Below the pieces are notes generated by a model. That model was not told the origin of the DNA. It worked only from the letters and a program-made list of their open reading frames with translations, and ran no database searches. Below are positions 6,996 to 20,264 of a DNA stretch of 64,000 bases, in pieces; the stretch's first letter is position 1; the number at the start of each line of letters is the position of its first letter. Origin of the DNA: Gemmatimonadota bacterium (GTDB lineage Bacteria > Gemmatimonadota > Gemmatimonadetes > Palauibacterales > Palauibacteraceae); NCBI GenBank assembly GCA_051004775.1, contig JBPCJZ010000084.1, forward strand, positions 16,589 to 80,588. The letters are read 5' to 3'. The translations under genes were made by a program, and so were the position numbers.

Positions 6996-8441
6996 ATGGT
7001 GAAACGGTCAGCGGTGGTCCCTTGCCTCGTCGCGCTGGTCGCGACGTTCGGTTGTCTGCTTCCCGAAGCCGCGGCGCAGTCCAGCGACCAACTATCGGAG
7101 AACGTGCGCAAGTATGTCGAGGTCGGCGAACCGGTCGTCGCCCTCGAGAACGTGACCTTGCTCGACGGGACCGGCTCCCCGGCGCGCCAGGGCCAGACGA
7201 TCGTCATCTCGAACGGAAGAATCGCCGCCGTGGGCGCGGCGGGCGAGGTCGAGATCCCGCGAGACGCCCGGCGACTCGACCTGAGCGGCCGTACCGTGGT
7301 CCCCGGACTGGTCGGCCTGCACGACCACCTCTTCTACATGGCAGCAGGCGGACGGGCGTCGCAGGCCAACTTCACGGCGCCGCGGCTGTATCTGGGGGCG
7401 GGCGTGACGACGATCCGCACGACGGGGAGCCGCCGTCCCTACGACGACATCAACGTCCGGGCCGACATCGAGCGCGGCTTCACACCGGGGCCTCGTATCC
7501 ACATCACCGCCCCGTACATCACCGGCGTCGACGGCGCGACGAGCATGGCCCAGATCGGATCGCCGGAGCAGGCCCGCCGGTTCGTCGCCTACTGGGCGGC
7601 CGAAGGAGCGGAGTGGATCAAGGCCTATACGGCGATCACTCGCGAGGACCTGGCCGCCGCCGTCGAGGAGGCCCATGAACAGGGGATCAAGGTCACCGGC
7701 CACATCTGCTCGGTCTCGTTCCGGGAAGCCGTCGCCCTCGGCATCGACAACATCGAGCATGGCTACGCGACGGCGTCCGATTTCATCGCATCCAAAGAGC
7801 CGGATCAGTGCCCGCCGAACCTGATGGTCCTGGTCGGCAGCGAGGACCCCGTCGGTGAGACGGCGGAGGACGTGATCCGGACGCTGGTCGACGCCGGGGT
7901 CGGGATGACCTCCACGCTCGCCGTGTACGAGCCGTTCATCCAGGGTCGCCCGACGAAGGACTCCCTTACGCTGGCAGTGATGGCGCCGGAAGTCAGAGAG
8001 GACTACCTGGCCGCGCGAGAGGAGATCGACGCGGATCCCGAGTATCCGCTGACCGACGTTCACTTCGAGAAGGCCATGGCGTTCGAGAAGGCGTTCGTGG
8101 AGGCCGGCGGGCTCCTGGCGGCGGGGGTGGATCCGACGGGGCTCGGCGGCGCGATCGCCGGGTTCGGCGACCAGCGCAATTACCAGTTGCTGCACGAGGC
8201 CGGTTTCACGCCGGAGCAGACGATCCAGATCATGAGCCTGAACGGCGCGCGAATCCTCGGCGTCGACGGCGACCTCGGTTCCGTCGAAGTCGGAAAGATC
8301 GCCGATCTCGCGGTGATGGACGGCGACCTCACGGTGGACCCGGGCGCCATCCGACGGGTGAACCTCGTGTTCAAGGACGGCGTCGGCTACGACTCGCAGC
8401 GCCTCATCGACGACGTGAAGGGAAGGGTGGGCATCAACTAG
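6996..8441 (+). CDS. Secreted amidohydrolase-family protein
   Basis: Signal peptide; PGLVGLHDH (HxH), IKAY, GHI, EHG, GVDP metal ligands; C-terminal GSVEVGKIADL. Confidence 0.88.
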   Translation: MVKRSAVVPCLVALVATFGCLLPEAAAQSSDQLSENVRKYVEVGEPVVALENVTLLDGTGSPARQGQTIVISNGRIAAVGAAGEVEIPRDARRLDLSGRTVVPGLVGLHDHLFYMAAGGRASQANFTAPRLYLGAGVTTIRTTGSRRPYDDINVRADIERGFTPGPRIHITAPYITGVDGATSMAQIGSPEQARRFVAYWAAEGAEWIKAYTAITREDLAAAVEEAHEQGIKVTGHICSVSFREAVALGIDNIEHGYATASDFIASKEPDQCPPNLMVLVGSEDPVGETAEDVIRTLVDAGVGMTSTLAVYEPFIQGRPTKDSLTLAVMAPEVREDYLAAREEIDADPEYPLTDVHFEKAMAFEKAFVEAGGLLAAGVDPTGLGGAIAGFGDQRNYQLLHEAGFTPEQTIQIMSLNGARILGVDGDLGSVEVGKIADLAVMDGDLTVDPGAIRRVNLVFKDGVGYDSQRLIDDVKGRVGIN

Positions 8442-8487
8442 AAGGACTTCAGCGACCTGGCAGACCGGCTTCCAGCGAGAGCTCCGG

Positions 8488-9558
8488 CTATTCCCGGAGC
8501 GCCCTGCGTAGCTTCCGGGCGAGCTCCGACGGCTCGATACCTCCGCCGTCGGAGCTGCTCACCGCCATGCCGATCGCCCACATCGCCTGCTCCCGTACGT
8601 CCGCATCCGGGTCCTCCAGGGCATCCGACAGCGCGCCGGCGGCGCGCGGGTCCTCGATCATGCCGAGCGCCCACGCCGCTTGTTTCCGGACGTCCGCGTC
8701 GCTGTCCGAGGACAGTGCCGTCACCAGGGCGTCGACCCCCACCGGGGACTCCACCATGCCGAGGCCCCACGCCGCCTGCTCCCTGACTTTCGGGTCGGCG
8801 TCCCTCAGCAGTTCGACGAGCGGATCGACGCCCCGGGGACTCTCGATCATGCCGAGGGCCCACGCCGTCTGCTTGCGCACTTCGTGGTTCTCGTCGTCGG
8901 CGGCATCCTGCAGGGCCGGGACGCCGCGGGTGTCCTCGATCATGCCGAGCGCCCACGCCGACTGCTCGCGAACGCGCGCCTGGGTATCCGAACCGAGGGC
9001 CCGCGACAACGCGGCGATGGCCGTAGCGTCCTCGATCATCCCGAGTGCCCATGCCGCGCGTTCCCGTACGGCAGCGGTCGCATCCCCGGCCAGGCTGCTG
9101 GACAGCTCGGGGATGGCCCGAGAATCCTCGATCAGCCCCAGGGCCAGCGCAGCGTTTTCGCGGCCGATCGGATCCGCGTCTCGTAGCACTCCCAGCAGCG
9201 GGTCGAGCGCTTCGGAGCCGAGCTCCTCGAGGGCGCCGGCGGCCTCACGGCCGGGCGATGAGTCGTCGTGCCATCCGCGCCGCCAGCCATAGCCGTCGCG
9301 GCACAGCCTGCCTTCGACCGACTCGCCGTCGCTCAGCAGGCGGAGCAGCGCCGGCATGGCCGTGCGTACGGCGAGACTGCCTCTCTCTCCGAGTTCGCAG
9401 GCGGCCATCGCGCGTTCGTGGGCGTCCGCCGAATCGAGACGTTCGATGATCTCCGCGGCATCCTGGGCGAGGGCAGGTCCTGAGCACCCGAGCGCGGCGC
9501 CGGCCGCCAGCGCCAGGGCTAGAGTTCGCGGCAATCGGGCCGATATCGCAACAGACAT
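8488..9558 (-). CDS. Secreted HEAT-repeat (PBS-lyase-like) protein
   Basis: Start ATG 9558 with GGAG RBS; signal peptide ...PALAQD; 7 repeats of R-x-x-A-A-W-A-L-G-M-I-E type plus 2 divergent repeats. Confidence 0.85.
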   Translation of the reverse strand: MSVAISARLPRTLALALAAGAALGCSGPALAQDAAEIIERLDSADAHERAMAACELGERGSLAVRTAMPALLRLLSDGESVEGRLCRDGYGWRRGWHDDSSPGREAAGALEELGSEALDPLLGVLRDADPIGRENAALALGLIEDSRAIPELSSSLAGDATAAVRERAAWALGMIEDATAIAALSRALGSDTQARVREQSAWALGMIEDTRGVPALQDAADDENHEVRKQTAWALGMIESPRGVDPLVELLRDADPKVREQAAWGLGMVESPVGVDALVTALSSDSDADVRKQAAWALGMIEDPRAAGALSDALEDPDADVREQAMWAIGMAVSSSDGGGIEPSELARKLRRALRE

Positions 9559-9581
9559 GAGTCGTCTCCGGCAAGGGTAAA

Positions 9582-9593
9582 AAATTAGCATCA
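9582..9593 (-). promoter_or_regulatory. Candidate extended -10 promoter (TGC-TAATTT) overlapping an operator half-site
   Basis: Minus strand reads TGATGCTAATTT about 25 nt upstream of ATG 9558; the 9-mer TTAGCATCA (9585-9593) also occurs in the blaI promoter. Confidence 0.5.
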
Positions 9594-9603
9594 CGGGTTC
9601 CAG

Positions 9604-9627
9604 AAAAGGCCCGCCGAAGCGGGCCTT
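9604..9627 (-). terminator. Intrinsic terminator after the M56-HEAT gene
   Basis: Minus strand GGCCCGC-TTCG-GCGGGCC followed by TTTT; UUCG tetraloop. Confidence 0.8.
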
Positions 9628-9642
9628 CCGGGAAACGCGGGT

Positions 9643-11679
9643 TCAGTTCAGGATCATGCCGAGCGCCCACATTGCTTTGTCGCGCACCTCGGCGTCCGGA
9701 TCTTCGACGGCGTCGACGACCGTATCGAGTCCCTCCCGATCCTCGATCATTCCGAGAGCCCAGACGATCTGCTTTCGGACGTCCGCCACGTTTTCCTGCG
9801 CGAAAGCGGCCGCGAGCCCACTGACAGCCGCGGAGGACTCGATCATGCCGAGCGCCCAGGCCGTCTGATCCCGCACCGCGGGAGATTCGTCCCGCAGCAG
9901 GGGCAGCAGCCCGTCGACCGCGGACGAGGACTCGATCATGCCGAGCGCCCACACCGCCTGCTTCCGCAGATCGGCATCCGAATCGCGTAGCAGGGGCGAC
10001 AGGGCTTCGACCGCGTCGGGCGACTCGATCATGCCGAGCGCCCAGGCCGCCTGTCGACGCACGGCCACACTCTCATCCAGGACTGCTTCACCGAGGGCCG
10101 GAACCGCGGCCGGGTCTTCGATCATCCCGAGAGCCCAGGCCGCTTCCTTGCGCACGCCCGCGTCCGTGTCGGACCGGACGGCGCGAGAGAGCGCTTCGAC
10201 CCCACGGGAATTCTCGATGCTCCCCAGCGTGTGCGCCGCCTTGCGGCGTAGTGACGCATCGTCGGACGACATGGCCTTCATCAGCGCCTCGAAGACCCGC
10301 GAATCGATCGTATCGGCGGCCAGCGCCGCGGCCGGATCATCGACGTCGGCGCCGCCCGACATCTCCAGCGATACGGTCCCCCCCGCTTCTCCCGCTTCGG
10401 AGTCGAGCTCGATGCCCTCGTTGGTCGACCGTTTCGTCGAAGTATTGGCGTCGCGATCGGTCGTTCGGCCTTCCACGAGGTCCAGCTGGCGCGGTTCGGC
10501 CTCGGCCAGCGGGGCCATCTCAGCTTCCGCCGTGTCGGCGTCGGGGGGGGGTGCAGGCTCGAGGGCCGCGAGCGGAACCACCATTGCCGCGAGCAGGGCC
10601 GTGCCGGCCAGCGCGGAACGTCGGCCCAGGCTGCGGCGGCTGCGTCGATGGTCGAGGATGGCGAGGACTCGTCCTTCGAGCTCCGATGAACGAGCCATGG
10701 CGACGGCGGCGCGCAGCGGCCGAGCCCCGCGGCTTAGCCCCCGGGCGACTTCGACGAGGTGATGCGCGTAGTCGGCGCCCTCCGTGCCGGCGGCGATCAC
10801 CGCGTCGTCACAGGCCCGCTCGCGGTGCGACCGCATGCGCCGGGCCGCGATCCAGGCCAGCGGGTTCGGCCAGTGCACGGCGAGCGCCAGCTCCGACAGA
10901 GCCTGCGCGAGACAATCGTTCCGGCGGAGGTGGGCCAGCTCGTGCAGAACGACGACCCGGCGCCGATCCTCCGGCCAGTCCTCGATCCCACGCGGCAGAA
11001 TCAGCCAGGACCCGAAGAGCCCCCACGCCATCGGCACACGGACCTCGTCGCTCACGACGACGCGCACGTCGCGCCGCAACCCGGCCTTCAGGGACAGGAG
11101 AGAGACGAGAATCGTCCACTGCCGATCGGTCACCGGGCGCCCGCGGCGCACCAGGCGCCGGGCCCGCCACAGGCCGAGTCCGAGGCGTCCCGCGAGAAGC
11201 GCCATCCCGATCAGCCACACGAACAGTACGATCGTCGGGATGGGCACCGACGACGCCCGTTCGATCTCGTGCGATGTCCCTGTTACCGTGGCGGGCACTG
11301 ACATGGAAGCGGGGAGCCCGGTCCCCGCGTCGACGCCCGCCGCCGATACTCCACCCCTCGGCCACGGCACGCCGCCCTTCTCGATGGAACCCGCCTCCGC
11401 ACCATTCGCCGCCTCGCGGCTGGAGGCGACGACCGCGGTAAGCGCCTCCGGAGCGGCTATCCGCCACTCGGGAAGGGCCGCGGTCAGGACCGGCAACGCG
11501 AGCAGGCCCGCCATCGCCAGCGCCCAGACGTGATAACGCACGGCCGCCGGTGCTCGCCTGGCCGCCAGCGCGACGGCGCCCGCCACCAGGAGCAGCGCCG
11601 CACCACGCAGGAGGATCGAAAGGGCGAGTGCTGCCGGCACCGCCGTCTGTCCGGATACTGCGTCCATGATCGTCTCCAC
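9643..11679 (-). CDS. BlaR1-like M56 metallopeptidase with C-terminal HEAT-repeat domain
   Basis: N-terminal TM helices, VPMAWG, HELAHLRRND zinc motif, HWPNPLAW, RERACDD; 7 HEAT repeats after the last TM; GTG start. Confidence 0.9.
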   Translation of the reverse strand: METIMDAVSGQTAVPAALALSILLRGAALLLVAGAVALAARRAPAAVRYHVWALAMAGLLALPVLTAALPEWRIAAPEALTAVVASSREAANGAEAGSIEKGGVPWPRGGVSAAGVDAGTGLPASMSVPATVTGTSHEIERASSVPIPTIVLFVWLIGMALLAGRLGLGLWRARRLVRRGRPVTDRQWTILVSLLSLKAGLRRDVRVVVSDEVRVPMAWGLFGSWLILPRGIEDWPEDRRRVVVLHELAHLRRNDCLAQALSELALAVHWPNPLAWIAARRMRSHRERACDDAVIAAGTEGADYAHHLVEVARGLSRGARPLRAAVAMARSSELEGRVLAILDHRRSRRSLGRRSALAGTALLAAMVVPLAALEPAPPPDADTAEAEMAPLAEAEPRQLDLVEGRTTDRDANTSTKRSTNEGIELDSEAGEAGGTVSLEMSGGADVDDPAAALAADTIDSRVFEALMKAMSSDDASLRRKAAHTLGSIENSRGVEALSRAVRSDTDAGVRKEAAWALGMIEDPAAVPALGEAVLDESVAVRRQAAWALGMIESPDAVEALSPLLRDSDADLRKQAVWALGMIESSSAVDGLLPLLRDESPAVRDQTAWALGMIESSAAVSGLAAAFAQENVADVRKQIVWALGMIEDREGLDTVVDAVEDPDAEVRDKAMWALGMILN

Positions 11680-11680
11680 C

Positions 11681-12070
11681 TCACCCCTCCTCGCGGCGTG
11701 CGCGCTCGATGAGAGCGGTAAGCCGGTTCAACTCGTCATCGGTCAGCTCGGCCGCTTCCTGGTCGAGCAGGGAAGCCATCATCTGTACCGCCGACCCCCC
11801 GAAGAATGTGTCTGCGACGTGCGCGAGGGCCGACTGGCGGGCCCGCTTGTGCGCCATCTTCGGACGATAGACGTACCGGGGCCCCTCCTGGACGTGGGTC
11901 ACGTGACCCTTGTCCTCCAGGATGCGGAGCTGGGCCCGAACCGCCGAGTAGCTCGGCGCGTTGGGGAGATTCTTCCGCACGTCCGCGACGCTTGCCTCTC
12001 CGAGCCGGAAGAGGGCATCCATGATCTGCCGCTCCCTGCGGCTCAGCCGATGCTGCAACTGCTCGATCAT
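11681..12070 (-). CDS. blaI: BlaI/MecI/CopY family transcriptional repressor
   Basis: LSRRERQIMDALF, SYSAVRAQLRILEDKGHV, FFGGSA pattern; directly upstream of the M56 gene; GGAGG RBS. Confidence 0.9.
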   Translation of the reverse strand: MIEQLQHRLSRRERQIMDALFRLGEASVADVRKNLPNAPSYSAVRAQLRILEDKGHVTHVQEGPRYVYRPKMAHKRARQSALAHVADTFFGGSAVQMMASLLDQEAAELTDDELNRLTALIERARREEG

Positions 12071-12081
12071 TCGTCCTCCGC

Positions 12082-12138
12082 TGCTAAGTAACTAGCACTT
12101 GATGCTAAGCATTTAACATGGGCGTCGCGGGGTGTCAA
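12082..12138 (-). promoter_or_regulatory. blaI promoter with clustered TGCTA/TAGCA operator half-sites
   Basis: Perfect -35 TTGACA (12133-12138) with an imperfect -10 (TTAAAT); TAGCA-N5-TGCTA (12093-12107), TGCTA-N6-TAGCA (12082-12097) and ATGCT-A-AGCAT (12102-12112). Confidence 0.65.
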
Positions 12139-12145
12139 GCGACGG

Positions 12146-12421
12146 CTAGCGTCCCCCGCGGGATATGAGCCGGATGACGGCAACGAACAGGGCCGCACCG
12201 ATGATCGACCACACGACGGGGAAGCTCGTGCCCGCGACCTCGAGCACGAAGAGATCGCCGACCCCGAGGGCGCGACCGAGCCACGCGCCGAGCAGGGCGC
12301 CGATGAAGCCGATGGCAATCGACACGAGACAGCCCCCGGTATCGAAGCCGACGATCGCCTGGCCGAGGGAGCCGATCACACCGGCGACGAGAAGGAACAG
12401 CAGCAGATCGATGAGCGTCAT
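12146..12421 (-). CDS. GlsB/YeaQ/YmgE (transglycosylase-associated) membrane protein
   Basis: 91 aa; LVSIAIGFIGALLG and WSIIGAALFVAVI hallmark segments. Confidence 0.85.
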   Translation of the reverse strand: MTLIDLLLFLLVAGVIGSLGQAIVGFDTGGCLVSIAIGFIGALLGAWLGRALGVGDLFVLEVAGTSFPVVWSIIGAALFVAVIRLISRGGR

Positions 12422-12714
12422 TGCATTACGTCCTGTTCATTGTTCGAAGACTGCTCGAATGCGTCCGTGGCCCATTCGGCCGCGAGCGCGACCCCGTGGA
12501 TGAGCTGATCGCCCATCCAGGTCAGCCCCGACCCGATCACGGTCTGGTCGAGCAGGCCCGCCCACACCGCCCCGAGCGCCAGGACGGCGACGACGAGGGC
12601 CGGCTTGAGGATGATGCGAAGGGTCTCCCTGATGACGAGCCACATGACCATGACCAGCAGGCCGAAGAACACCAGGGCGCCAACGAGCGAAGAGGGGATG
12701 GGGATGGATTCCAT
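12418..12714 (-). CDS. Hypothetical membrane protein
   Basis: Two hydrophobic segments; its stop overlaps the next start (ATGA); start could be 12714 or 12726. Confidence 0.7.
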   Translation of the reverse strand: MESIPIPSSLVGALVFFGLLVMVMWLVIRETLRIILKPALVVAVLALGAVWAGLLDQTVIGSGLTWMGDQLIHGVALAAEWATDAFEQSSNNEQDVMQ

Positions 12715-12824
12715 GGCCGGCTGCATCTCCCTGCGGCAGTGGGTTCGGTGGCCGCCGGGGCCGCCGGGGGGGGAAGATGGGGGAGGCCGCGGACGCCGCA
12801 CAAGAGAAGCGATCCGGACGGGAC

Positions 12825-12846
12825 TGTCGGTGGGGTAGGCTAAGGT
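12825..12846 (+). promoter_or_regulatory. PafBC/RecA-NDp-type promoter TGTCGG-N10-TAAGGT
   Basis: TGTCGGTG-GGGTAGGC-TAAGGT matches the mycobacterial consensus TGTCRgtg-N8-TAnnnT; 33 nt upstream of the exonuclease ATG. Confidence 0.7.
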
Positions 12847-12879
12847 ATCTAGTGTGAATCAACGAACACGGAGAGGACA

Positions 12880-13629
12880 ATGAACCTGCTGGCATTCGAC
12901 ATCGAAGCGACGGGGCTCGACCCGTACGAGGACCGTATCCTGGAGCTCGCGGTGATCCGAGTCGAGGACGACGCTCTCGTCTTCCACGCGTTCTTCGACC
13001 CTGAGGGTCCGATCCCCGCCGATTCTACCGAGGTGCACGGCATTACGTCCGAGACCGTTCGCGGCTGCGCGACGTTCGCGTCCTGCGCCGCGGCGATCCA
13101 GCGCCTGGTCGACGGGGCGGTACTCGTCGGGTTCGTCTCCCGCCGCTACGACACCCTGCTGCTCGACGCAGAACTTCGCCGGGCAGAGCAGGCGGGCCTG
13201 GACCTGGACACCGTCGCGGAGATCGACCTGTACCGCGTGTGGCGCGAGGCGGAGCCGCGTAATCTCGGGTCCGCGGTGAAGCGATTTCTCGGCCGGAAGC
13301 ACGACATGGCGCACAAAGCCGTTCCCGACACCGCCGTGCTGCCTCCCCTGCTGCGCGAAATGGGCCGACTATTCGGCTACTCGATCGACGACATGGTTCG
13401 GATGAGCCGGCCGGTGGGCGAGGTCGACAGGTCCGGCCGTTTCTGCGTGGACGAGGAGACCGGGGAAGTGGTGTTCAACTTCGGCAGGCACCGGGAACAG
13501 CCGGTCCGCCTTCACGACGAGTATCTCGAGTGGATGCTCGGCGAACGTTTCCCGCCCGACACGAAAGCCGCGATCCGCGTGCTCCGGCGCAACGGCTTCT
13601 CGTGGGGGTCGGAGCGTTCGGCCGCCTGA
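12880..13629 (+). CDS. DEDDh 3'-5' exonuclease (DnaQ/Pol III epsilon-like) with ExoX-like C-terminal domain
   Basis: FDIEATG (ExoI), RYDTLLL (ExoII), HKAVPDT (ExoIII); C-terminal FNFGRH...EYLEWML; GGAGAGG RBS. Confidence 0.9.
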   Translation: MNLLAFDIEATGLDPYEDRILELAVIRVEDDALVFHAFFDPEGPIPADSTEVHGITSETVRGCATFASCAAAIQRLVDGAVLVGFVSRRYDTLLLDAELRRAEQAGLDLDTVAEIDLYRVWREAEPRNLGSAVKRFLGRKHDMAHKAVPDTAVLPPLLREMGRLFGYSIDDMVRMSRPVGEVDRSGRFCVDEETGEVVFNFGRHREQPVRLHDEYLEWMLGERFPPDTKAAIRVLRRNGFSWGSERSAA

Positions 13630-16034: not shown

Positions 16035-17477
16035 TCAGATCGCGCCGCGTTCAGCGCCCCGCAGCAACTCCGGCACATCGAAGTCATACGCGTCGGCCCG
16101 GACAGATTCTGCTACGTCCCGCACGAACTCTCCCCGGTCATTGCGCTCCCGAAGATCGACGACGGGACCGGTCGGCGCGTCCGGTCGATCGGCGTTCAGC
16201 AGCACGACATCGGGGTGCAGCGCGTCGTCGGCATGCGTCGCGGTCACGAGGCCGAGTTCATCGTGCGTCGTACGGATCAGCGTGCCGATCGGAAAGAACG
16301 TAACGACGCTGACGAAGGCCTTGACGATGGCGGGGTTCAATTTTTCTCCTGCCATGCGAGCAAGAATGAGGCACGCCTGTTCTGGTGTTGCGGGATCCCG
16401 ATAGGAGCGCGCTCCCGTTACCGACTCATACACATCGGCGACGGCGACGACCTGGCTCATCGCATGCGGTCGCCGATCCGGACCCAGGTCGGGATATCCC
16501 CCGCCCCCATAGTCTAGATGATGTTCGAGCGCCACGACCGGTGTAAGCGGATTCAGGCCGTCGAGGGTGGCGAGGATTTCCGATCCGATGAGGGGATGCC
16601 GCCGGATTGTCCGCCATTCCCGGTCCGTGGGACGCCCCGCCTTCGTCAGTATCTCGACGGGAACACGTGTCTTCCCGACATCGTGGAGGAGAGCCGCTTC
16701 CGCAAGGATGTTCGTCTCCCGCTCGGCCAGTCCCAGTCGTTCGGCCAGGCGAACGCTGAGCAACGCGACATTCACGGAGTGCAGGTAGGAGAGATTCTCA
16801 TACTGCTTCAGGGCCATCACCTGGCTGAGGGCGACTCCGCTGCGCGCCACCCGACCGACAAGCACCTCGAGCAGGTCGTGAATCTCTCGTACGTCAGGGG
16901 AAAAACCGCTCTCGAAGCCCTCGAAGGCTTTTCGTGCCTGGTCCGCCGCGTGCCGGTAATCCGGATCCTCCAACCTGGCTGGAGCGTCGGGCCACATGCG
17001 GCCTGGCCGTCGATGGTGCACGGGCAGTATTCGCGCCAGGCTGACGTGCCGGACGCCCCGCGCCTGCAGCAATTCACCGACGGGCTCGCCGATACCTGGT
17101 CCCCGGTGCTCGCGCGCGATGAAGCTGCCGATGACGCGAATTTCCTCGCGCGTGATTCCCCGGTAGATGTGAAGGCTGTCGAGGCCGAGCGCGCTGAACT
17201 CCTCCAGCACGCGCTGGTGAACCCGACTTTCTCTCGGCAGCGGTTCCCCATCGTAGTTGAGGATCCCGCGAATCACATCCAGCTGCGCGACATCTCGATC
17301 TCCCACGAGCTGCGTCGCGTGGCGCAGCACGTCGTCGATCTGGGCTTCGATCCCCGGGTGGCCGTCGGGATACAACAGGCAGGCCCTTCGCAGGGCTGCG
17401 AGGGCGCGGAAGACCTGGCCGGGATCTAGACCCGGTTCGCGCCCTGTTCCAACAGGCGCGGCGACGGGAGAATTCAA
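16035..17477 (-). CDS. HD-GYP domain protein (putative cyclic-dinucleotide phosphodiesterase)
   Basis: HSVNVA, LLHDVGK, HPLIG, EHH...GGGYP, VADVYE...RSYR; TTG 17477 overlaps the upstream stop (TTGA). Confidence 0.85.
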   Translation of the reverse strand: MNSPVAAPVGTGREPGLDPGQVFRALAALRRACLLYPDGHPGIEAQIDDVLRHATQLVGDRDVAQLDVIRGILNYDGEPLPRESRVHQRVLEEFSALGLDSLHIYRGITREEIRVIGSFIAREHRGPGIGEPVGELLQARGVRHVSLARILPVHHRRPGRMWPDAPARLEDPDYRHAADQARKAFEGFESGFSPDVREIHDLLEVLVGRVARSGVALSQVMALKQYENLSYLHSVNVALLSVRLAERLGLAERETNILAEAALLHDVGKTRVPVEILTKAGRPTDREWRTIRRHPLIGSEILATLDGLNPLTPVVALEHHLDYGGGGYPDLGPDRRPHAMSQVVAVADVYESVTGARSYRDPATPEQACLILARMAGEKLNPAIVKAFVSVVTFFPIGTLIRTTHDELGLVTATHADDALHPDVVLLNADRPDAPTGPVVDLRERNDRGEFVRDVAESVRADAYDFDVPELLRGAERGAI

Positions 17478-19687
17478 CTTGCCCGCCGGAGATACTGGAG
17501 CGAGCACCAACCAAGCGCCCGCCGGTCCGGATTCCAGATCATCAGAAGATTCCATCGTAGCCGTCGAAAGATCGGATCGAGGCCAGCAAGTCCCCGTCGG
17601 GTGGCGCCGTCTGCGAGCTGTCGCGCCAGATCAGGGCTCTGTCTCACCAACCCGGGGTCTTCCAGGGCCGAAAGGATGAGCAGATTCGATACCTCGGGCG
17701 GATAGCACCAGAGAGCTTCGGCGGCCTGTCGCCTGACCTCGGCGACGCTGTGCCTCAGAGCTGCCGCCGTGCGTTCGGCGCCTTCACGGGATCCGATCCG
17801 GGCAAGAGCCAGGAACGCCTCGCGAACCACGCGCAGGTCATCATGGTCCAGACACTCCGCGATGTCCTTTTCGTATCCCCGACCGCCATGTCCCATGAGC
17901 GTCAGGACATTCCGTACGACGTACCACTCCGAATTCGACAGATGGGGGGCGAGGTCCTTCACCAGCTCGCCCGCCCGCGGAGCGAGCGACGTGAGCAGCC
18001 GATTGCGGGCGCTGCGGTCCGATTCCACGAGAAGACTCTTGATGAGGGCTGTCACACCCGTCGCCTTCAATCCGCAGATGATCGTCACCAGCGGAAGTTC
18101 GCCCGAGGGCGCCGGTGCAAGCGCCGATACGCGGTGAATGAATTCAGGGGTCAGGTAGTCAGCCAGAGCCTCACGAATCAGAGCCGCAATCTCCGGGTCG
18201 GTCGTCTCCCGATGTCTCCCGATGTCCGCGTACCGCGCCATCCCCGCGGCTAAGCGCACGACGTCACCGCGATGTTCGAGGCTCTGGAAGAGCCCGCGGC
18301 TCTTCCTCAAGACGGAACCGGCGACCTGAGTGTCGGCGCTGAGCGCGAGGATGTCGGCAAAGCACTGCACCTGCGCAGCGACCCCGTCGGTCTCCTCGAT
18401 CGCGCGCACTGACTCGGCGAGTGAAAGGCTCGCCTCCTCGTCGATGGACAGGTCGAATGACCGAAGAGCGAGAAACTCTCGGCCAGATTCATTCGCGGCT
18501 CGCAGCAAATGCGCCGCCCTGTCGGTGCGCGGCAGCGAACGACCCATGGCCGCGGCGGATGCGGAGCCCTCGTCTTCGAGCCGATCGCTCACGCGTTCGA
18601 TGATCGTCGAGAGCCGGGACTCGGGAAGATCCAGCTTCGCGATGCCGGCCGATAGCATTTCCACCCCTCCGACCCCGAGGTCGAGCAGGAGCCAGAGAGC
18701 GCTGCTGACCTCCTCGTCCGCGAAATGGCGCAGGATCCGTCCGCTGCGGGTGCCGTCGATCAGGCCGGGAAGCACCTGTTCTCGCAGGAGCCTATGCTTC
18801 GTGTCGGCGGGAAGCCCCTGGACGAATCCAGCGAGCTTCTCGAACAGCGCCTCACCGACTTCCGGAGCGGCGGCCGCGTACAATTCGGTGATCTCGGAAT
18901 AGTGCGTGACGAGAGCGTCGGAGCTCGACACCGTCTCTCGCCGCCGCCCGCCGATCTGCTGCAGAGCTACGGCGAGGGAGGGGGCGTCCCGAAGCAGAAG
19001 GGGCAGATCTTCGATTGCCACACGATCGAGGGCGACCGACGAGTCGATTCGGATCCATCCCCGCTCGGCCTGTTCTCTCGACGGATTTACCCCGGCCTGA
19101 CCTTCCTGCACGAGCGTCAACAGGGCCGGAGGGACCGAACCGCCTTCGATCGTCTGGTGCATGGCGATCACCTGCGTTCGAATCCCTGAGACACCGCGTT
19201 CGTCCAGAATCTCGGGCAAGTCCTCCGTGCGATCGAGCAGTTTTTCCGGGAATGCCAGAACAGCGCAGAACTGCTGTATATCGCGCGTTGACGCGGCCGC
19301 GTCCACCTCGAGGACGGAGACGTAGTTTCTGCGGAGCGCGAGAACGAGGGCCCGCTCGGCTCCGGTATCTCCCGCCAGGAACTCGCCTTCTACCTTGAGG
19401 CCCTCGTTCGTGACGTTGAGCGCCAGACCCACACGACCCCGAAGGGCCGACCGCAAGGCTTCTCTGACAACCTCGACGATGTCCCGACGTATGGGGCTCT
19501 CCGGAGGATACGTGTGGAAGGCCTGCACCGCCCGGGAGAGAGCCGTCACGAATTCGCTGATGCTTCGCAATCGTGCCTGGGGGGCGATGTCTATGGCGTC
19601 AGCGGGTTCCGGGTCCACATACTGGGACAGGAACGTCGCGTGCCCCGTCTCGTCAGGCACGTCGCTTACGAAGTCCTCACTTTGCAA
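17474..19687 (-). CDS. Large alpha-helical protein with C-terminal HEAT repeats
   Basis: WYVVRNVLTLMG, RVVREAFLALARIG, EVRRQAAEAL HEAT units; start re-assigned to TTG 19687 (GGGAG RBS). Confidence 0.75.
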   Translation of the reverse strand: MQSEDFVSDVPDETGHATFLSQYVDPEPADAIDIAPQARLRSISEFVTALSRAVQAFHTYPPESPIRRDIVEVVREALRSALRGRVGLALNVTNEGLKVEGEFLAGDTGAERALVLALRRNYVSVLEVDAAASTRDIQQFCAVLAFPEKLLDRTEDLPEILDERGVSGIRTQVIAMHQTIEGGSVPPALLTLVQEGQAGVNPSREQAERGWIRIDSSVALDRVAIEDLPLLLRDAPSLAVALQQIGGRRRETVSSSDALVTHYSEITELYAAAAPEVGEALFEKLAGFVQGLPADTKHRLLREQVLPGLIDGTRSGRILRHFADEEVSSALWLLLDLGVGGVEMLSAGIAKLDLPESRLSTIIERVSDRLEDEGSASAAAMGRSLPRTDRAAHLLRAANESGREFLALRSFDLSIDEEASLSLAESVRAIEETDGVAAQVQCFADILALSADTQVAGSVLRKSRGLFQSLEHRGDVVRLAAGMARYADIGRHRETTDPEIAALIREALADYLTPEFIHRVSALAPAPSGELPLVTIICGLKATGVTALIKSLLVESDRSARNRLLTSLAPRAGELVKDLAPHLSNSEWYVVRNVLTLMGHGGRGYEKDIAECLDHDDLRVVREAFLALARIGSREGAERTAAALRHSVAEVRRQAAEALWCYPPEVSNLLILSALEDPGLVRQSPDLARQLADGATRRGLAGLDPIFRRLRWNLLMIWNPDRRALGWCSLQYLRRAS

Positions 19688-19832
19688 TTTGCATACTCCC
19701 GTGACGGAATACGACCTATCCGGGGTCCTCCGGCGCCGGTGGCCGCCCCGAAGCGAGGATCCCGGGTCGAGGAGAGCAGGTTGCATGCCCGCCAGAACCA
19801 TGTGACTGTTACCCGCGCAGGAGGGCCGCTGG

Positions 19833-20264
19833 GTGCTGAAGGAGTTCAAGGAATTCGCCGCCAGGGGCAACATGCTCGACATGGCCGTCGGCATCGTGAT
19901 CGGCGCGGCCTTTGCCACGATCGTGAAGACTTTCGTCGACCACATCCTGATGCCGCCCATCGGCCTGCTGGCCGGCGGCGTGGACTTCGCTGACCTCTAC
20001 GTGCTGCTCGAGCCGGGCGATCCCGCCGGGCCGTACGCCTCCTTCGCCGCGGCCCAGGAAGCGGGCGCCGTGACGATCGGGTACGGACAGTTCATCAACG
20101 ACGTGATCGCCTTCTTCATCGTCGCCTTCTGCGTGTTCCTCGTCGTCAGGGGATACAACGCGATGATGCGCAAGGAAGAGCCGGCCCCGGCGGCCCCGCC
20201 GGAGCCCTCGGCGGAAGAGAAGCTGCTCGGCGAGATCCGCGACCTGCTGGCGGCGAAAGCGTAG
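19833..20264 (+). CDS. mscL: Large-conductance mechanosensitive channel
   Basis: LKEFKEFAARGNMLDMAVGIVIGAAF, YGQFI, LLGEIRDLL. Confidence 0.96.
   Translation: MLKEFKEFAARGNMLDMAVGIVIGAAFATIVKTFVDHILMPPIGLLAGGVDFADLYVLLEPGDPAGPYASFAAAQEAGAVTIGYGQFINDVIAFFIVAFCVFLVVRGYNAMMRKEEPAPAAPPEPSAEEKLLGEIRDLLAAKA

Follow-up and report, generated by a model that had tools for sequence, protein, structure and literature searches.

A 64,000-nucleotide (nt) window of a Gemmatimonadota genome (assembly GCA_051004775.1, contig JBPCJZ010000084.1, positions 16,589 to 80,588) carries, between its positions 8488 and 12070, three minus-strand genes that encode a BlaI-like repressor, an M56 (BlaR1-type) membrane metalloprotease with a C-terminal array of HEAT repeats (the sensor), and an exported protein whose own HEAT array is paralogous to that of the sensor (the partner). 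This module is real and widespread, and it is best read as an uncharacterized non-beta-lactam variant of BlaI/BlaR1 (BlaIR) signaling. Our preferred reading, to which we give a probability of about 0.6, is that it works as an autoregulated switch based on regulated proteolysis, that its main output is the exported paralogue of its own sensor, and that its signal is not a beta-lactam but a periodic ligand in the periplasm. Coordinates below are those of the window, and the three genes with all features assigned to them are on the minus strand.

Two Paralogous HEAT Arrays

The sensor array (9646-10269) consists of seven repeats of 31 amino acids (aa) and the partner array (8524-9183) likewise of seven; in each, six of the seven repeats have Gln, Trp, and Met at the positions that align with positions 23, 26, and 30 of the alphaRep repeat. 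The Trp motif is WALGM throughout the sensor, while the partner has WALGM four times, WGLGM, and WAIGM. In alphaReps, the variable positions 18, 19, 22, 23, 26, and 30 form the concave binding surface (PMC3754942); here, positions 23, 26, and 30 are constant along the array.

BLASTP aligns the two arrays in register with 49% identity over 229 aa (191 bits, E = 3e-59), versus 29% identity and 25 bits for the other HEAT protein in the window (17474-19960), and no other array reaches E < 1e-3 in the 2.36-Mb assembly, which is 79% complete. When the partner is the query, M56-fused arrays are among its best non-orthologous matches. These comparisons confirm that the arrays are paralogous, with a similarity well above chance, and they bear out the proposal of the first-pass annotation that the two are more alike than generic HEAT repeats, the derived residues of the concave-face ladder being common to both. 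Likeness at the DNA level is limited to 2.4 repeat units (79%); the uniform Trp/Met ladder is therefore not the product of a recent amplification.

The AlphaFold2 (AF2) model of the partner is a solenoid with a predicted local distance difference test (pLDDT) score of 91. In Foldseek it is closest to alphaRep binders, with peptide-binding armadillo and importin-alpha proteins next; a Foldseek search with the full-length sensor model returns HEAT matches only, and BlaR1 is recovered solely by the sequence profile of the M56 part. Identity as a phycobiliprotein lyase was considered and rejected: the CpcE/F and NblB models score 24-95 bits, below their equivalog cut-offs of 220-330, and only the type of repeat is in common.

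The Three Genes and Their Products

The repressor gene (11681-12070) encodes a 129-aa winged-helix protein of the BlaI/MecI/CopY family that matches the Penicillinase_R family (PF03965, E = 5e-25) over its full length, residues 9-122 corresponding to positions 1-114 of the 115 in the profile. The C-terminal region TFFxGS...AALL is kept across an alignment of 72 homologues, and a phmmer search against the PDB gives a weak match to CopR only. The M56-HEAT gene (9643-11679; 678 aa) begins 1 nt past the blaI stop codon on the same strand and is translationally coupled to blaI. Its product matches PF05569 over residues 24-341 (E = 5e-33) and HEAT_2 with E = 1e-46. The His, Glu, and His of the zinc-binding motif HELAH (residues 246-250; 10930-10944) are invariant in two alignments of 17-23 homologues, as are E287 and D291 of the motif ERACDD (residues 287-292; 10804-10821), the presumed region of the third zinc ligand, in the alignment of homologues. 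A profile of the M56 part matches, in the PDB, only the cryo-electron microscopy chains 8EXS and 8EXP of Staphylococcus aureus BlaR1 (E = 1.7e-15); the alignment with 8EXS runs from the third transmembrane (TM) segment to just before the fourth, and pairs HELAH with HEYAH and ERACDD with EVEAD. Judged by these motifs and by the comparison, the protease is catalytically intact.

The partner gene (8488-9558) encodes 356 aa when read from the ATG at 9558. The open reading frame reaches back to a GTG at 9594, which would give 368 aa; the ATG, with a GGAG eight bases before it, is probably the true start. The partner matches HEAT_2 with E = 2e-67, and HEAT_PBS matches the sensor and partner proteins with E = 9e-24 and 1e-36, respectively. 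The first-pass annotation had described blaI, an M56 protease with seven HEAT repeats, and a signal-peptide protein with seven repeats, and this description of the locus holds, positions included.

Hydropathy gives the M56-HEAT protein four TM segments (about residues 22-40, 51-69, 145-163, and 355-373), with which helices of the AF2 model agree (9-35, 41-64, 143-175, and 349-367). Positive charge follows TM1 and TM3 and precedes TM4 (RRSRRSLGRR), and the stretch past TM4 is acidic: a predicted periplasmic linker of residues 374-455 (10315-10560) has 20 Asp/Glu versus 5 Lys/Arg and is disordered, with pLDDT below 50 over residues 382-451. Beyond it, the solenoid of residues 456-673 is modeled with confidence. 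Because of the charge bias and the homology to BlaR1, the sensor HEAT array is placed outside the cytoplasm, and the predicted arrangement is that of BlaR1, with a cytoplasmic protease domain and a periplasmic sensor; the earlier assumption that the HEAT domain is not cytoplasmic thus stands as a prediction in which hydropathy, charge, the AF2 model, and the BlaR1 alignment concur, the domain following TM4 on the acidic side. The partner has a predicted signal peptide (9466-9558) with the junction ALA-QD and a lipobox-like motif, ALGC, and an N-terminal hydrophobic segment is common to all partner homologues whose start is credible. The topology at TM4 and the signal peptide of the partner therefore predict that both arrays are periplasmic.

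Conservation and Distribution

A search with the HEAT region returns 1,257 protein clusters, and PF05569 is present in 118 of the top 120; the JGI name for such proteins is 'HEAT repeat protein/beta-lactamase regulating signal transducer with metallopeptidase domain'. A survey with one genome per species found more than 515 loci, the best 80 of which were analyzed; by their record titles these come from Gemmatimonadota, Acidobacteriota, Rhodothermota/Bacteroidota metagenome-assembled genomes (MAGs), and one MAG labelled Acidimicrobiia. A blaI gene lies directly upstream of the M56-HEAT gene in all 77 testable loci. Directly after the M56 gene, a same-strand gene for an exported HEAT-only protein is found in 55 of the 68 loci with enough downstream sequence; 18 of these partners are 'long', like that of the window, and 37 are 'short' (178-300 aa, often overlapping the M56 stop codon). 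The partner gene is 1.2-2.6 kb away in two more of the 68 loci and absent from the flank in 11, although the genome of one of the 11 (locus L034) has an unlinked partner gene (L089) behind a perfect operator of the kind described below. The third gene is thus conserved, as the first-pass annotation had supposed.

The module is by no means confined to this genome and is frequent among soil bacteria. It occurs in three of eight genomes of its own genus, in none of 11 other genera of the family, and in seven of 12 genomes of the sister family, and its closest M56 relatives include Acidobacteriota; this patchy distribution suggests gain and loss, or transfer between phyla. In the Acidimicrobiia-labelled MAG (L021, CAXMUQ010000240.1), the module is sister to that of the Gemmatimonadota locus L035 in the M56 tree (100/98 support), a placement that could reflect a mis-binned contig or a recent transfer.

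Regulatory DNA

The promoter of blaI has a -35-like TTGACA (12133-12138), found at the same spacing before the operator in many related loci, followed by two tandem palindromes of the form TGCTA-N6-TAGCA. Operator 1, TGTTAAATGCTTAGCA (12103-12118), has one mismatch and overlaps an extended -10-like TGtTAAAT; operator 2, TGCTAGTTACTTAGCA (12082-12097), has perfect half-sites. The 2.36-Mb assembly as a whole should have about 0.5 exact sites. Most of 78 loci have the palindrome ahead of blaI, as a rule in a tandem of two copies 3-5 bases apart, and in related loci the first copy overlaps the extended -10 (e.g., TGCTAGAAT) 17 bases past TTGACA.

After the M56 gene comes a terminator-like GC hairpin, GGCCCGC-ttcg-GCGGGCC followed by TTTTCT (9602-9625), which a terminator scan did not call because the T-run is too short; a hairpin and T-run occupy the same place in loci L001, L004, L005, L007, L009, L010, L013, and L033. 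Then follows a candidate partner operator, TGCTAATTTTTTACCC (9575-9590), which has two mismatches, both in the right half, and contains an extended -10-like TGcTAATTT. Orthologous partner operators read TGCTAAAATTTTACCA (L001), TGCTAATTTTTTAACA (L004 and L013), and, as a perfect site, TGCTAATTTTTTAGCA (L008). The gap between M56 and long-class partner genes has a regular layout, to which the window conforms: stop codon, GC hairpin and T-run, about 10 bases, operator, ribosome-binding site, and ATG. An operator is present in this gap in nine of the 18 long-class loci at up to one mismatch and in 14 at up to two, with 0.0014 and 0.024 sites, respectively, expected per 150-nt gap. The layout supports a promoter of the long-class partner's own, behind a terminator and putatively under BlaI control, and with it the co-regulation of the third gene claimed earlier; the short-class partner is instead translationally coupled to the M56 gene.

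A scan of the whole genome finds, besides those at blaI, one convincing site only, before a gene for an exported amidohydrolase. At 2864-2896 of contig C193 (L093), the tandem TGCTATTAATCCAGCA g GGCTAAAAAAATAGCA stands behind TTGACG and directly before this gene (PF01979; 2912-4348). In 30 relatives, no homologue of it exceeds 40% identity or has an operator; the gene is a possible additional BlaI target. In 10 related genomes, operator sites stand before PF00144 serine hydrolases, a CBM9/DUF5916 gene, an FG-GAP protein, and unnamed exported proteins, and these genomes have 2-7 BlaI paralogues each. Perfect operators directly precede exported PF00144 (beta-lactamase-family serine hydrolase) genes in two of them (L086, G009:C27:197735; L088, G001:C50:9647). 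A different BlaI/M56 pair is situated about 4 kb from the site in G001, so the same half-sites may serve several BlaI paralogues. Given the paralogues and this second pair, the sites in related genomes are not safely assignable to the module.

As for the surroundings of the locus, an Rfam scan of 8000-13000 gives no match. Two small membrane-protein genes with overlapping stop and start codons closely precede the blaI promoter on its own strand (12146-12801), one for a Transgly_assoc (GlsB/YeaQ-type) protein of 91 aa and the other for an unnamed protein of 127 aa. On the plus strand, a gene for an exported amidohydrolase (6996-8441) converges on the partner gene.

Ladder Residues and the Partner-Specific Cap

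The repeat consensus of the family is V-R-x-Q-A-A-W-A-L-G-[E/Q/M]-I-E-[D/S], and the residue at position 30 is uniform within an array and clade-specific across loci. Sensor and partner agree in the M clade (10 loci), with M/M in the window and in L001, L004, L005, L007, L009, L010, L013, and L020; the other pairs are Q/Q in L022, L069, and L078; Q/A in L008; and E/A in L038 and L064. No E/E pair occurs among the compared loci, and many sensors of the family have Trp plus Glu ladders. The uniform Trp/Met ladder of the first-pass annotation is therefore real in six of seven repeats per array, but its Met belongs to one clade, the position being M, Q, or E according to the clade. Copper sensing by a CopY-like repressor with Met/Trp ligands as in CusF was considered and rejected: Met is swapped for Gln, Glu, Ala, or Asn in sister clades, and there is no His/Cys ladder.

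M-type systems come together in the M56-core tree with 94/87 support, just under the star threshold of the tree tool, in a clade of four Gemmatimonadota and nine Acidobacteriota-type rows; the protease, sensor type, and partner type therefore appear to be inherited together, across phylum boundaries. The sensor and partner of one locus, a cognate pair, resemble each other no more than pairs drawn from within a clade do, which makes the duplication behind the two arrays an old one. Concerted evolution and recent duplication at each locus were rejected as explanations, since cognates are not best mutual matches.

One element sets the partners apart: an N-terminal cap module (9214-9456; DAHERAMAAC...VEGRLCRDGYGWRRGW...SSPGREAA) with two (nearly) invariant Cys residues, which is common to all partners and absent from sensors. 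It reads DAHxRAMAACxLG ... VEGRLCR..GW..GW ... SSPGREAA in the M clade and AVRGxxPxxCE(L/M)xxRxL..GWGWG outside it; among partner homologues C54 is invariant and C86 is conserved in at least 90%. The first Cys occupies the repeat position that is Trp elsewhere, and the second lies in a Trp/Gly/Arg-rich loop over which the AF2 model has low confidence (residues 75-101). It is reasonable to suppose that a disulfide fastens this loop to the beginning of the concave surface.

Mechanism and Alternative Readings

Under the preferred reading, BlaI dimers would sit on the TGCTA-N6-TAGCA sites and repress both transcription units. Ligand bound in the concave Gln/Trp/Met stripe of the sensor would be signaled through TM4 and activate the cytoplasmic M56 domain, which would cleave and hence inactivate BlaI; the output would be more sensor plus a burst of free solenoid. 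The ligand may be extended and periodic, such as a glycan strand or an extended peptide in the periplasm, read once per repeat, and the free paralogue, by binding the same ligand, would shield or sequester it and damp the signal. A shared periodic ligand is favored, and it fits the ladders of sensor and partner, which are identical in the clade of the window. Several observations weigh against this reading. The BlaI residues at the position of the staphylococcal cleavage site (N101-F102) are not conserved among the 72 homologues. The partner operator of the window departs from the palindrome twice within a single half-site, and, the assembly being 79% complete, a second BlaI could exist. Three further points fit poorly with the idea of the same ligand or speak against it: most Gemmatimonadota partners are short forms of only 1-3 repeats, the residues at position 30 differ between sensor and partner in L008 (Q/A) and in L038 and L064 (E/A), and cognate pairs show no extra similarity.

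The first-pass annotation had proposed that the sensor resembles the effector whose expression it controls. The resemblance is established by the paralogy of the arrays, but the role of effector is not, since the partner might just as well serve as a co-sensor or feedback element. In one such circuit, which is possible though rather improbable, the exported paralogue is itself the ligand or co-sensor, docking on the tethered array so that the two concave faces meet, and gating the protease; the circuit would then gauge the free pool of partner, titrated for example by an envelope component, with direct negative feedback. The alphaReps A3 and bA3-2 bind each other in just this way, through their concave faces (PMC3754942). 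The M/M and Q/Q ladders are self-complementary, E/E pairs are missing, and sensors with Glu ladders have partners with Ala; in most loci, M-clade partners are more acidic than their own sensors at concave positions, and the Cys-tethered Trp/Gly/Arg loop, found in partners only, could serve as a plug or pseudo-ligand. Set against this, the clade sample is small, at about 4-5 independent lineages, the similarity of cognate pairs is, as said, not raised and there is no obvious co-variation at the level of loci, and a circuit that induces only an inhibitor has no evident output. Pairing of the solenoids accordingly ranks second to a shared periodic ligand, with a role as a docking scaffold a weaker third. 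That last reading, modeled on flux sensing by transporter-sensor pairs and in our view quite unlikely, would have the HEAT array report the state of a MacB/FtsX-type permease or of a CBM9/DUF5916 outer-membrane-type protein, with the paralogue as accessory adaptor. In nine loci (L046, L048, L052, L056, L065, L075, L076, L077, and L079), the partner gene has a CBM9/DUF5916 gene behind it in the same orientation, and the Rhodothermales genome of L043 has an unlinked gene of this kind with a perfect TGCTA-N6-TAGCA 24 nt ahead of its start (L085, 1501-1516). In two Acidobacteriota loci, L002 (10219-12716) and L028 (6174-8633), a duplicated MacB_PCD/FtsX permease gene stands between the operator downstream of M56 and the partner gene, which suggests an operator-permease-partner transcription unit. 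No such gene adjoins the module of the window, however; MacB-type permeases and Ser/Thr kinases are so abundant in these phyla that the linkage may be chance, and in genomes with 2-7 BlaI paralogues the operator half-sites may be common to several of them.

That the module is an ordinary sensor or resistance system for beta-lactams or other cell-wall drugs, or that its HEAT domain is a cytoplasmic non-sensor, is very improbable. The family names do say BlaR1, and operator-like sites precede the PF00144 genes of two related genomes and the amidohydrolase gene on C193 of this one. Yet a domain scan of the sensor finds no match to PF00905 or to any penicillin-binding or beta-lactamase domain; the NCBIfam model blaR1_generic matches residues 136-368 only, with 96 bits against a cut-off of 400; of the sites named, that of G001 has another BlaI/M56 pair close by and that of the amidohydrolase is not conserved. 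A cytoplasmic HEAT domain runs counter to the charge bias and the homology to BlaR1 already described.

The shared-ligand reading can be carried a step further, to a proposal that is speculative and rather doubtful: in soil Gemmatimonadota and Acidobacteriota, the module may perform a self-referential surveillance of the envelope, in which the tethered array and the free paralogue compete for a periodic polymer or bind each other. Un-crosslinked glycan strands of peptidoglycan would be an example of such a polymer, their disaccharide repeat of about 1 nm matching one Trp per HEAT repeat. If this were true, the cell would measure an exposed polymer rather than a small molecule, the sensor would be a 'ruler' of repeat register, and the BlaR family would have a second, non-covalent principle of sensing.

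Comparison with Known Systems

The closest known systems are BlaI/BlaR1 and MecI/MecR1 of S. aureus and Bacillus licheniformis (BlaR1 structures 8EXP-8EXT), which likewise set a PF03965 repressor beside a four-TM M56 zinc protease with HEXXH, a downstream Glu/Asp motif, and a C-terminal sensor outside the membrane. In BlaIR, too, palindromic operators overlap both the promoter of the regulator operon and that of a target transcribed on its own; the putative BlaI sites described here are of the type TGCTA-N6-TAGCA, versus TACA/TGTA for BlaI/MecI operators. In both cases the target is related in fold to the sensor, which is the logic that the first-pass annotation had drawn from BlaR1; the analogy is loose, however, because the BlaR1 sensor and the regulated enzymes have only a superfamily fold in common. 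The BlaR1 sensor is a penicillin-binding (class D beta-lactamase-like) domain, whereas here it is an alphaRep-like HEAT solenoid, with which covalent acylation chemistry is therefore not possible; the target here is a binding protein with no catalytic motif, unlike the BlaIR enzymes. The host is a diderm and both arrays are thus expected in the periplasm, unlike in the hosts of BlaR1/MecR1.

No paper connecting M56/BlaR1 with HEAT repeats came up in a literature search. A recent survey of about 15,000 M56 proteins reports that fewer than 10% of BlaR-like proteins have a transpeptidase (TP) domain and that about 96% have a BlaI gene nearby; HEAT is not among the nine architectures with at least 100 entries, which include TonB_C, TP, M23, Plug, CarbopepD_reg_2, DUF4825, and Amidase_3 (PMC13492132, 2026). 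CenIR of Clostridioides difficile likewise combines a BlaI-like repressor with an M56 protease that lacks a transpeptidase domain and responds to a non-beta-lactam signal (PMC13492132). It differs from the HEAT module in that CenR has a short disordered sensor and no paralogous secreted target has been described (PMC13492132).

Antibiotic sensing by regulated proteolysis has its textbook example in BlaR1/MecR1, and most BlaR-like proteins have no penicillin-binding sensor (PMC13492132). The HEAT module offers a readable handle on these: the fold of its sensor is known and the binding face can be predicted, the ladder residues are invariant, and the operator is defined. Its single conserved target is a soluble copy of the sensor and hence an obvious bait for the ligand. 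The module abounds in two of the dominant soil phyla, both poorly cultured, and its signal is likely to be informative about how these bacteria monitor their envelope or surroundings.

The concave face itself has two known parallels. Importin-alpha and designed armadillo proteins also have a Trp ladder and, a helical turn from it, another constant residue that is polar or acidic, with which they read an extended basic peptide one repeat at a time; these are eukaryotic, cytosolic proteins built of ARM repeats with three helices, 15-20% identical and distant as Foldseek matches, and the likeness is one of analogy, not membership. The alphaRep binders and their natural PBS-HEAT-like parents (MTH187, 1TE4; 3LTJ, 4JW2) have the same 31-residue helix-turn-helix repeat with the consensus VRxxAAxALGxI and the same right-handed solenoid fold, and the arrays match alphaReps with phmmer E values down to 6e-54, Foldseek TMt of 0.8-0.89, and 35-42% identity. 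In the natural PBS-HEAT-like family, the binding positions are hypervariable between repeats, whereas here positions 23, 26, and 30 are constant as Gln, Trp, and Met; and unlike the alphaRep family, the HEAT proteins of the module are exported or fused to a membrane protease, natural exported alphaRep-like binders that should be of interest to protein engineers.

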